A stretch of DNA of 18,749 nucleotides from a virus. Taxonomy: Duplodnaviria > Heunggongvirae > Uroviricota > Caudoviricetes. The notes beneath the pieces are model-generated. The model had not been told where the DNA came from and made no database searches. It saw only the letters and a program-made list of their open reading frames with translations. Below, one piece after another: positions 15,411 to 15,979 of this stretch; position 1 is the first letter of the stretch; the number at the start of each line of letters is the position of its first letter. The position numbers and the translations under genes were made by a program. Location: the IMG/VR virus record IMGVR_UViG_2703718769_000007. One strand, 5' to 3'.

Positions 15411-15426
15411 TTTCATTCCCCGCACA

Positions 15427-15448
15427 GATAAGAATAAGTCTTATTCTA
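15427..15448 (-). promoter_or_regulatory. Palindromic operator-like site (Fur-box-like) overlapping a candidate -10, upstream of the lipoprotein gene
   Basis: AGAATAAG-t-CTTATTCT (15431-15447) is a perfect 8-bp inverted repeat around one central base. Plus strand GATAAGAATAAGTCTTATTC matches 13 of 19 positions of the Fur consensus GATAATGATAATCATTATC by hand alignment. Minus-strand TAGAAT (15448-15443) could be a -10. Confidence 0.4.
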
Positions 15449-15754
15449 ACAATGCCGCCCTGTCGGTCATCAATCCTCTGCTTAATGGCAACGACAATTA
15501 TCCGACTTAAATCACAAATCAGACACATGACATAACAGGGCTTGCGAGGTAACACATCGTCCTGTTTCTTCCACCATCGCACCGGACAGGCGACTATGAG
15601 GGGACAACGCCGCGCTCCGTTAACGCGGTAAACCCCGGTGTGTATCGTTTTTGATTATCCCCGCACACTCGCGCAGAGGAGTCTCCCTGTCGGGCTGCGG
15701 TCTCTGTTAATACGGGAATACGGCGACGATACCGCGCATGGATAATAAGGTCGC

Positions 15755-15979
15755 TCAACACACTGGCTGTAATGCAGCAGATACCATGCGGCATTTAGCG
15801 GCATTCACAGCACACTCCACGGTTAGCTCTTCATTCGAGGCATCCACCCGAAAGACCCGGGAGTATGATTGCGTACATTTACCACTGAACGTACCTTCAA
15901 CAAGAACACGACCAGGCTGCAAAACACGGAACGGAATTGTTCCCTGAAAAGGCTTTACGGTTACCAGTAATTTCTTCAT
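15755..15979 (-). CDS. Hypothetical 74-aa Cys-containing protein
   Basis: ATG 15979 preceded by GGAGAA (MKKLLVTVKPFQGTIPFRVLQPGRVLVEGTFSGKC...VEC...AKC...PVC). No family recognised. The supplied ORF starts 6 codons upstream. Confidence 0.5.
   Translation of the reverse strand: MKKLLVTVKPFQGTIPFRVLQPGRVLVEGTFSGKCTQSYSRVFRVDASNEELTVECAVNAAKCRMVSAALQPVC

Follow-up and report, generated by a model that had tools for sequence, protein, structure and literature searches.

Between a small late gene and a lipoprotein moron of a lambdoid Escherichia coli prophage we found a conserved, non-coding and structured element that, judged from sequence comparison, is selected for base pairing and fixed in position relative to Rz and the terminase genes. 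The window, which is the whole stretch of 18,749 nt that was analyzed, carries its late genes on the minus strand, and our account of the region downstream of the spanins has three parts: an accessory gene encoding 74 aa (ORF74), an element that would act in cis on the late mRNA, and a private upstream region of the moron. To this three-part account we assign a probability of roughly 0.6. The stretch between ORF74 and the moron holds more of interest than had been expected, namely a structured element that is widespread and apparently unannotated.

In the order of the late transcript the window contains an endolysin gene (17668–18201), an Ant-like gene (16699–17394), a small, hydrophobic membrane ORF of 43 aa (16473–16604; PHROG 4906, E 7e-24), Rz and Rz1 (16003–16569 and 16065–16250), ORF74 (15755–15979), the TonB_C moron (15084–15416), an HNH endonuclease gene (14345–14710) and the genes for the small (13504–14097) and large terminase (11846–13507), all on the minus strand. 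A YlcI/DUF3950 gene (14752–14952) lies on the plus strand. The gap between ORF74 and the TonB_C gene covers 15417–15754; the interval described in the earlier note begins at 15411, which falls within the first codons of the TonB_C gene (ATG at 15416 or 15410). A RefSeq genome with 97% identity over 15000–16100 has the same genes annotated and leaves the gap blank. The Rz ORF as called mechanically starts at a TTG at 16569 and encodes 188 aa, with homology to Rz only from about residue 37 onwards (MLSAFTV...), so that the true start is probably internal; the 43-aa hydrophobic ORF overlaps this spurious 5' extension in a different frame.

Comparison with homologous prophage regions, which had been proposed in the earlier note, divided the gap into two parts, a sharply bounded conserved block (15741–15559) and the moron upstream region (15558–15417). 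In an alignment of 99 unique relatives the borders of the block lie at ~15741 and ~15560, and the flanks are unrelated on both sides. The structured element proper occupies 15732–15559 (174 nt, minus strand). We detected the block in 4154 of 5426 complete E. coli genomes (about three quarters) at a median of 2 and a maximum of 11 places per genome, most of these matches spanning the block alone, and in 398 phage records including lambda, 933W, POCJ13, ES18 and SPN3UB. The lambda copy (46874–47033) is wholly intergenic, between lambdap78 and bor, and the K-12 copy is located in the borD–ybcV intergenic region of the DLP12 prophage (579.01–579.18 kb). Copies in 933W and POCJ13 are found ~110 nt upstream of the small terminase gene, and in the Salmonella phages ES18 and SPN3UB the element is the last feature before the genome end. 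Among ~100 classified loci the upstream neighbor is Rz directly, bor or ORF74, and the downstream neighbor is a DUF1398 gene, a TonB-like gene, the terminase genes or something else; whatever the neighbors, the late-sense sequence is always oriented from Rz towards the terminase genes. The element can be regarded as a fixed point around which morons are swapped (bor/iss, ORF74, the TonB-like lipoprotein and DUF1398). It accompanies 80 of the 84 ORF74 loci, nearly always 14 nt past the ORF74 stop codon; two loci show no detectable element within ~2.5 kb downstream, and at a further two the contig stops. Each of the two, ORF74 and the element, can occur apart from the other. When viral contigs were searched for helix-2 variants only ES18-type Salmonella copies and one E. 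coli-type copy (L353) were obtained, and for this reason the range of the element appears to be limited to lambdoid phages of Escherichia, Shigella and Salmonella. A search of genome contigs with a 14-base degenerate pattern gave chance matches only. ColV-type virulence plasmids carry a partial element as well (p1ColV5155, NZ_CP005931.1, 2501–2595; 80% identity over ~94 nt); it adjoins iss and remnants of Rz/Rz1, from which we infer that the ColV iss locus is a lambda-like prophage fragment that includes the element.

The gap is non-coding. The earlier note had seen no convincing ORF in it, and we came to the same result: the only sizeable ORFs are 15594–15794 (minus), 15346–15582 (minus) and 15738–15947 (plus), none of which has Pfam support or a frame conserved across relatives. 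The variable columns of the block are distributed over the three codon phases as 36/40/38, without codon periodicity, the block lengths of the relatives fall into the three classes modulo 3 as 41/19/17, and indels are mostly 1–2 nt long (424 of 451 gap runs). The 66-aa ORF at 15594–15794 (minus strand), which overlaps the element and matches PHROG 6954 ('Rz-like spanin'), is regarded as a translation artefact because the block has no conserved frame, and the family PHROG 6954 seems to consist of such translations of non-coding sequence. In that case both the 'Rz-like spanin' label and the 'hypothetical protein' calls found here now and then would denote translated non-coding DNA; several phage records label the element in one of these two ways. 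A mini-ORF with the translation MRGIVAVFPY (ATG at 15739) was rejected, as no Shine–Dalgarno sequence precedes it and the frame is interrupted by a stop codon in lambda. Rejected likewise was a relic of a DUF1398 gene (ybcV/lambdap78), and with it the idea that the gap holds remnants of a degraded gene: tblastn gave only two short fragments in different frames, which trace to the C-terminal tail of one relative whose ORF reads into the element, and in lambda the element is intergenic, with the lambdap78 stop codon (47042–47044) outside it. The annotated 'DUF1398 family protein' of 177 aa at locus L002 (NZ_CP151934.1, 2061–2594) is encoded on the opposite strand and overlaps the element by 93 nt; its odd C-terminal tail, ...PVSSTIAPDRRPCGCSPHPVYAAKPGVHRF, probably results from translation continuing into non-coding DNA. 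Rfam 15 gave no match at E ≤10 on 15530–15770, none at E ≤1 on 14700–16700 and none at gathering score in the whole window. A terminator of the late operon, also proposed for the gap, was not borne out: a scan for intrinsic terminators (a G+C-rich stem followed by a U tract) found none in 15417–15754, and the sole terminator-like site, at 15943–15928, is located inside ORF74, one site being the chance expectation. No U run following the hairpins of the element is shared by all lineages.

The consensus fold of the element was computed with RNAalifold on the late-sense strand. The 5' domain (15642–15732) contains helix 1 of 7 bp (15732–15726 with 15648–15642) and helix 2 of 11 bp (15720–15710 with 15666–15656; arms TATTCCCG / CGGGAATA), which are separated by an internal loop of 5 × 7 nt, and an apical region with a CCC/GGG mini-hairpin (15694–15692 with 15687–15685). 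In this domain 96–99% of the cells are paired, and four pairs of helix 2 have changed on both sides. The variable hairpin A (15600–15636) lies between helix 1 and hairpin B and has an outer stem GGGG/CCCC (15636–15633 with 15603–15600) and an inner stem CCGCG/CGCGG (15628–15624 with 15614–15610). The inner stem has been swapped across lineages with pairing kept (CCGCG/CGCGG, CUGUG/CGCAG and CAGC/GCUG), and the whole hairpin is missing from lambda-type copies. Hairpin B (15559–15587) has a 7-bp stem (15587–15581 with 15565–15559) and a loop of 15 nt with a conserved GGAAGAA; five of its seven pairs have changed on both sides. In the window its stem contains a G.A mismatch at 15583/15563 and joins the 5' arm of a GTCCGGT/ACCGGAC allele to the 3' arm of a GTCCTGT/ACAGGAC allele, the mismatch apparently stemming from recombination between the two allelic stems. 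An alternative pairing of 5 bp is available there between CCTGT (15590–15586) and ACAGG (15565–15561).

Standard pairs were found in 97.9% of the pair cells of 64 sequences. The first sequence set had been collected by a pattern in one arm of helix 2, which suppressed variation in this helix, and therefore independently found copies (lambda type, ES18 type, K-12 and 933W) were added. In 20 representatives 92.7% of the cells are paired and 12 of 37 pairs have changed on both sides, compared to 7.4 ± 1.4 in shuffles (none of 500 reached 12) and 3–8 with slid partners. The covariation score of these representatives is 0.207, against 0.117 for shuffles and at most 0.081 for slid partners. Single events can be traced in helix 2, where C-G became G-C in the lambda lineage and, in the Salmonella lineage, A-U or, by way of C.A, U-A, and in hairpin B, where G-C became U-A among the E. 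coli types. In ES18 the whole hairpin B stem GTCCGGT/ACCGGAC is replaced by CTCGAT/ATCGAG with every pair kept. The covariation events are few, as the sequences represent only about three deep lineages (E. coli types, lambda type and Salmonella ES18 type). The constraint on the element is visible in its pairing and not in raw conservation: its divergence of 0.28–0.41 is near the synonymous divergence of the adjacent Rz (0.32–0.58), and the folding energy of the single sequence is no better than that of shuffles (z ~0). Both of these values would also fit a block without a function of its own, ancestral DNA at a mosaic junction that is kept as a linker used repeatedly in homologous recombination among lambdoid phages. 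The sharp borders with unrelated flanks and the recombinant hairpin B of the window point the same way, as does the reported recombination of lambda with DLP12 in this region (PMC3945230). However, a linker leaves unexplained the 12 two-sided pair changes, which exceed every shuffle and every slid control, the pairing of 93–98%, and the replacement of the hairpin A inner stem with pairing kept, and we consider it quite unlikely.

We compared the two strands by consensus energy. On the late strand it amounts to −36.2 kcal/mol for 64 sequences and −26.8 kcal/mol for 77 sequences, on the opposite strand to −13.9 and −7.7 kcal/mol, respectively; the advantage of the late strand arises because its G.U pairs become A.C mismatches on the other. 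The late strand is moreover the only one certain of transcription in every context, and we consider it probably the functional strand. Part of this call depends on two U.G pairs that are fixed and terminal; most of the helices are Watson–Crick and possible on either strand. Read from the plus strand, the element could form the leader of bor/iss and, for leftward genes of the DUF1398 family (ybcV/lambdap78 type), a 3' UTR or terminator. This possibility draws on the Watson–Crick helices that either strand could form and on the situation in lambda and K-12, where the element sits exactly between the lambdap78/ybcV stop codon and bor, hairpin B beginning 9 nt past the lambdap78 stop. It is improbable, though, given that many carriers (ES18, SPN3UB, POCJ13 and the window) have neither the DUF1398 gene nor bor, so that no leftward gene feeds those copies, that the A.C mismatches leave a consensus energy two to three times weaker, and that no U tract follows the hairpins on the plus strand. 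A wobble asymmetry of the same kind, with G.T in place of G.U, would favor one strand of DNA likewise, and multi-hairpin architectures of ~170 nt, as the element has, resemble single-strand initiation signals. The structure might accordingly form in ssDNA, for example as a priming or assembly signal in late rolling-circle replication. Nothing points specifically to DNA, and the orientation always follows late transcription, whichever replication or packaging module is present; we regard this reading as highly improbable.

In the preferred reading, that of a cis-acting element of the late mRNA, the sequence would be transcribed within the Q-antiterminated late transcript and would adopt the fold described above, with helices 1 and 2 (7 + 11 bp) as one long interrupted helix, followed by the variable hairpin A and by hairpin B with its 7-bp stem and GGAAGAA loop. 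The RNA would be the active form, acting in cis on the late mRNA, possibly as a border, in processing or stability, between the lysis cassette and the genes that follow it. This specific role is doubtful; it is favored over other roles because the helix of 7 + 11 bp with its asymmetric internal loop resembles RNase III sites. Processing sites of RNase III consist of about two helical turns of double-stranded RNA, in which an internal loop is allowed, and helix 1 and helix 2 with the 5 × 7 nt loop together come to about that length, a resemblance in structure only. With sites such as the T7 R1.1 type and the lambda sib retroregulator the element shares the long helix with an asymmetric internal loop, the location inside a long phage transcript at the boundary of gene blocks, and the maintenance of pairing over sequence. 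Unlike them it contains hairpins A and B in addition to the helix, and its apical region is large; in sequence it is not similar to them, the likeness being a structural one.

The small RNA suggested in the earlier note is the closest of its three proposals for the gap: a structure of ~174 nt on the late strand is supported by covariation, but the conserved promoter and terminator of an independent sRNA gene are missing. One may still imagine that the element is, or yields, a trans-acting sRNA, perhaps released from the lysis-cassette transcript at its 3' end, that regulates host or phage mRNAs, possibly via Hfq, which is conceivable because of A-R-N repeats (GGAAGAAAC) in the hairpin B loop. 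Unpaired stretches that are conserved (ACACCGGG(U)n and the GGAAGAA loop), the presence of multiple copies in pathogenic strains (up to 11 places per genome) and the many sRNAs known from E. coli prophages (PMC4104026) would fit such a molecule. AgvB, AsxR, Pas and svsR resemble the element in being short, non-coding, lambdoid, often multi-copy and located beside moron insertion sites. They differ from it in having their own promoters and terminators, a length of 50–80 nt and other positions near pR', Q, the holin genes or cI: AgvB and AsxR lie downstream of pR' (PMC4104026), the Pas sRNAs on the Q/holin side (bioRxiv 10.64898/2026.05.13.724894) and svsR at cI (PMC12803456). The element, by comparison, is found downstream of Rz; the sequence upstream of 15741 is unrelated between contexts, a terminator hairpin with U tail is absent, and Rfam gives no match for it to the models of AgvB, AsxR, Esr41 or STnc100. 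Taken together these findings make a trans-acting sRNA unlikely.

Returning to the cis-acting reading, we tentatively propose that the element represents an undescribed structured-RNA family present in most lambdoid phages, which could act at the lysis/packaging boundary of the late transcript and tune the relative expression or stability of the lysis and morphogenesis mRNAs. No description of it was found in the literature, older subscription papers on lambda lying mostly outside the search. Few genomes have been annotated as closely as those of lambda and E. coli K-12, and the element is still without an entry in Rfam or RefSeq. An element supported by covariation would add to the map of the lambdoid late operon, and it could explain how unequal yields of lysis and structural proteins are obtained from one late transcript of more than 20 kb.

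ORF74, the gene preceding the element, extends on the minus strand from an ATG at 15979–15977 to a stop codon at 15757–15755 and encodes 74 aa (MKKLLVTVKPFQG...LQPVC). A GGAG Shine–Dalgarno sequence (15985–15988) is located 5 nt before the ATG and 23 nt past the Rz stop codon, and cysteines occur at positions 35, 56, 63 and 74; coordinates, ribosome binding site and cysteines all agree with the earlier description. The length of the ORF is weak evidence alone, as 61 ORFs of at least 25 aa overlap 13500–17500, and it is on account of its conservation that we consider ORF74 a real gene. Among 5.8 billion proteins searched only 52 relatives were found, with E. coli as the sole organism named. They share 49–96% identity, and the full-length ones keep 72–76 aa down to 60% identity. 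In four representative alleles it occupies the only stop-free frame of six, the other five carrying stops in each. Residues 1–55 are well conserved. The emphasis formerly placed on four cysteines is not supported by the relatives: only C35 is invariant, C56 is mostly retained, and a subset lacks C63 and C74. Between distant alleles (pS ~0.5) dN/dS is 0.12–0.46 for codons 1–55, and the last 19 codons evolve near-neutrally in the same comparison. Against a common, 85% identical allele (L309-type), 10–12 of the 11–13 differences of the window in codons 1–55 are non-synonymous, and 8–10 differences are at codon position 1. For the closest allelic type the counts are small (Sd 1, Nd 10–12) and the changes conservative (V/I, T/S, D/N). 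This non-synonymous excess between close alleles may reflect diversifying selection or may be a recombination artefact. Divergent alleles are found directly after Rz/Rz1 together with lambda-type Nu1/A, with HK97-type terminases and with an M15-peptidase lysis cassette, and ORF74 is present in 26 phage records, most of them Stx-converting. These comparisons identify ORF74 as a true accessory gene within the late operon, an ordinary and uncharacterized phage gene that is conserved among the late genes of Stx-converting phages.

The protein had been described as belonging to no recognized family, and its only family match is indeed PHROG 2571, to which no function is assigned (E 1.7e-26, residues 1–73 on profile positions 100–172 of 291). 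Since ORF74 covers only this part of the 291-column profile, PHROG 2571 may mix architectures. One homolog (P0004) is a fusion of 125 aa with an N-terminal DUF1737 (PF08410) followed by a complete ORF74. A near-identical RefSeq locus annotates ORF74 as hypothetical protein WP_000735655.1. Searches against Pfam, NCBIfam and PADLOC gave nothing usable, the Pfam family PilZN (PF07317) remaining below its gathering threshold of 23 bits, and neither a signal peptide nor a lipobox was found. An AlphaFold2 model (pLDDT 89) is a small all-beta sandwich for which structure comparison gave no informative match. Translated from its own Shine–Dalgarno sequence, ORF74 would be a small cytoplasmic beta-sandwich protein. 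It shares with the bor/iss moron of lambda the slot between Rz and the conserved element. The two differ in that bor, which encodes a lipoprotein, is read from the opposite strand and expressed in lysogens, whereas ORF74 belongs to the late strand and lacks both signal peptide and lipobox; their sequences are not similar.

The remaining part of the gap, 15558–15417, travels only with the TonB-like gene and is best described as the private upstream region of the TonB_C moron with a putative extended −10 promoter. The promoter for the downstream moron that the earlier note had placed in the gap has its counterpart in a sigma-70 promoter-like site at 15443–15470 on the minus strand (ATGACC, 16 nt, TG-n-TAGAAT; 9 of 12 consensus matches); it is a consensus match only, the scan having found 2 sites against 1.9 in shuffles, which is chance level. 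In a diverged relative (L004) the −10 region can be aligned and the −35 is not conserved. A perfect 8-1-8 inverted repeat, AGAATAAG-a-CTTATTCT (15431–15447, minus strand), overlaps the −10 hexamer and the likely transcription start and resembles an operator; the L004-type upstream region does not have it. A Fur box was considered for this upstream region and rejected, as only ~10 of 19 positions matched by eye. Nearly the whole of the moron itself (15084–15416, MKRNLPLIILLSSLVMGC...), probably a lipoprotein, is TonB C-terminal domain (Pfam TonB_C, 9e-15). If located in the periplasm, such a domain could vie with TonB for the TonB boxes of receptors and could in this way exclude TonB-dependent phages or colicins. 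The family of the moron, PHROG 1267, is labeled 'Rz-like spanin', a label that looks carried over from the annotation of its neighbors.
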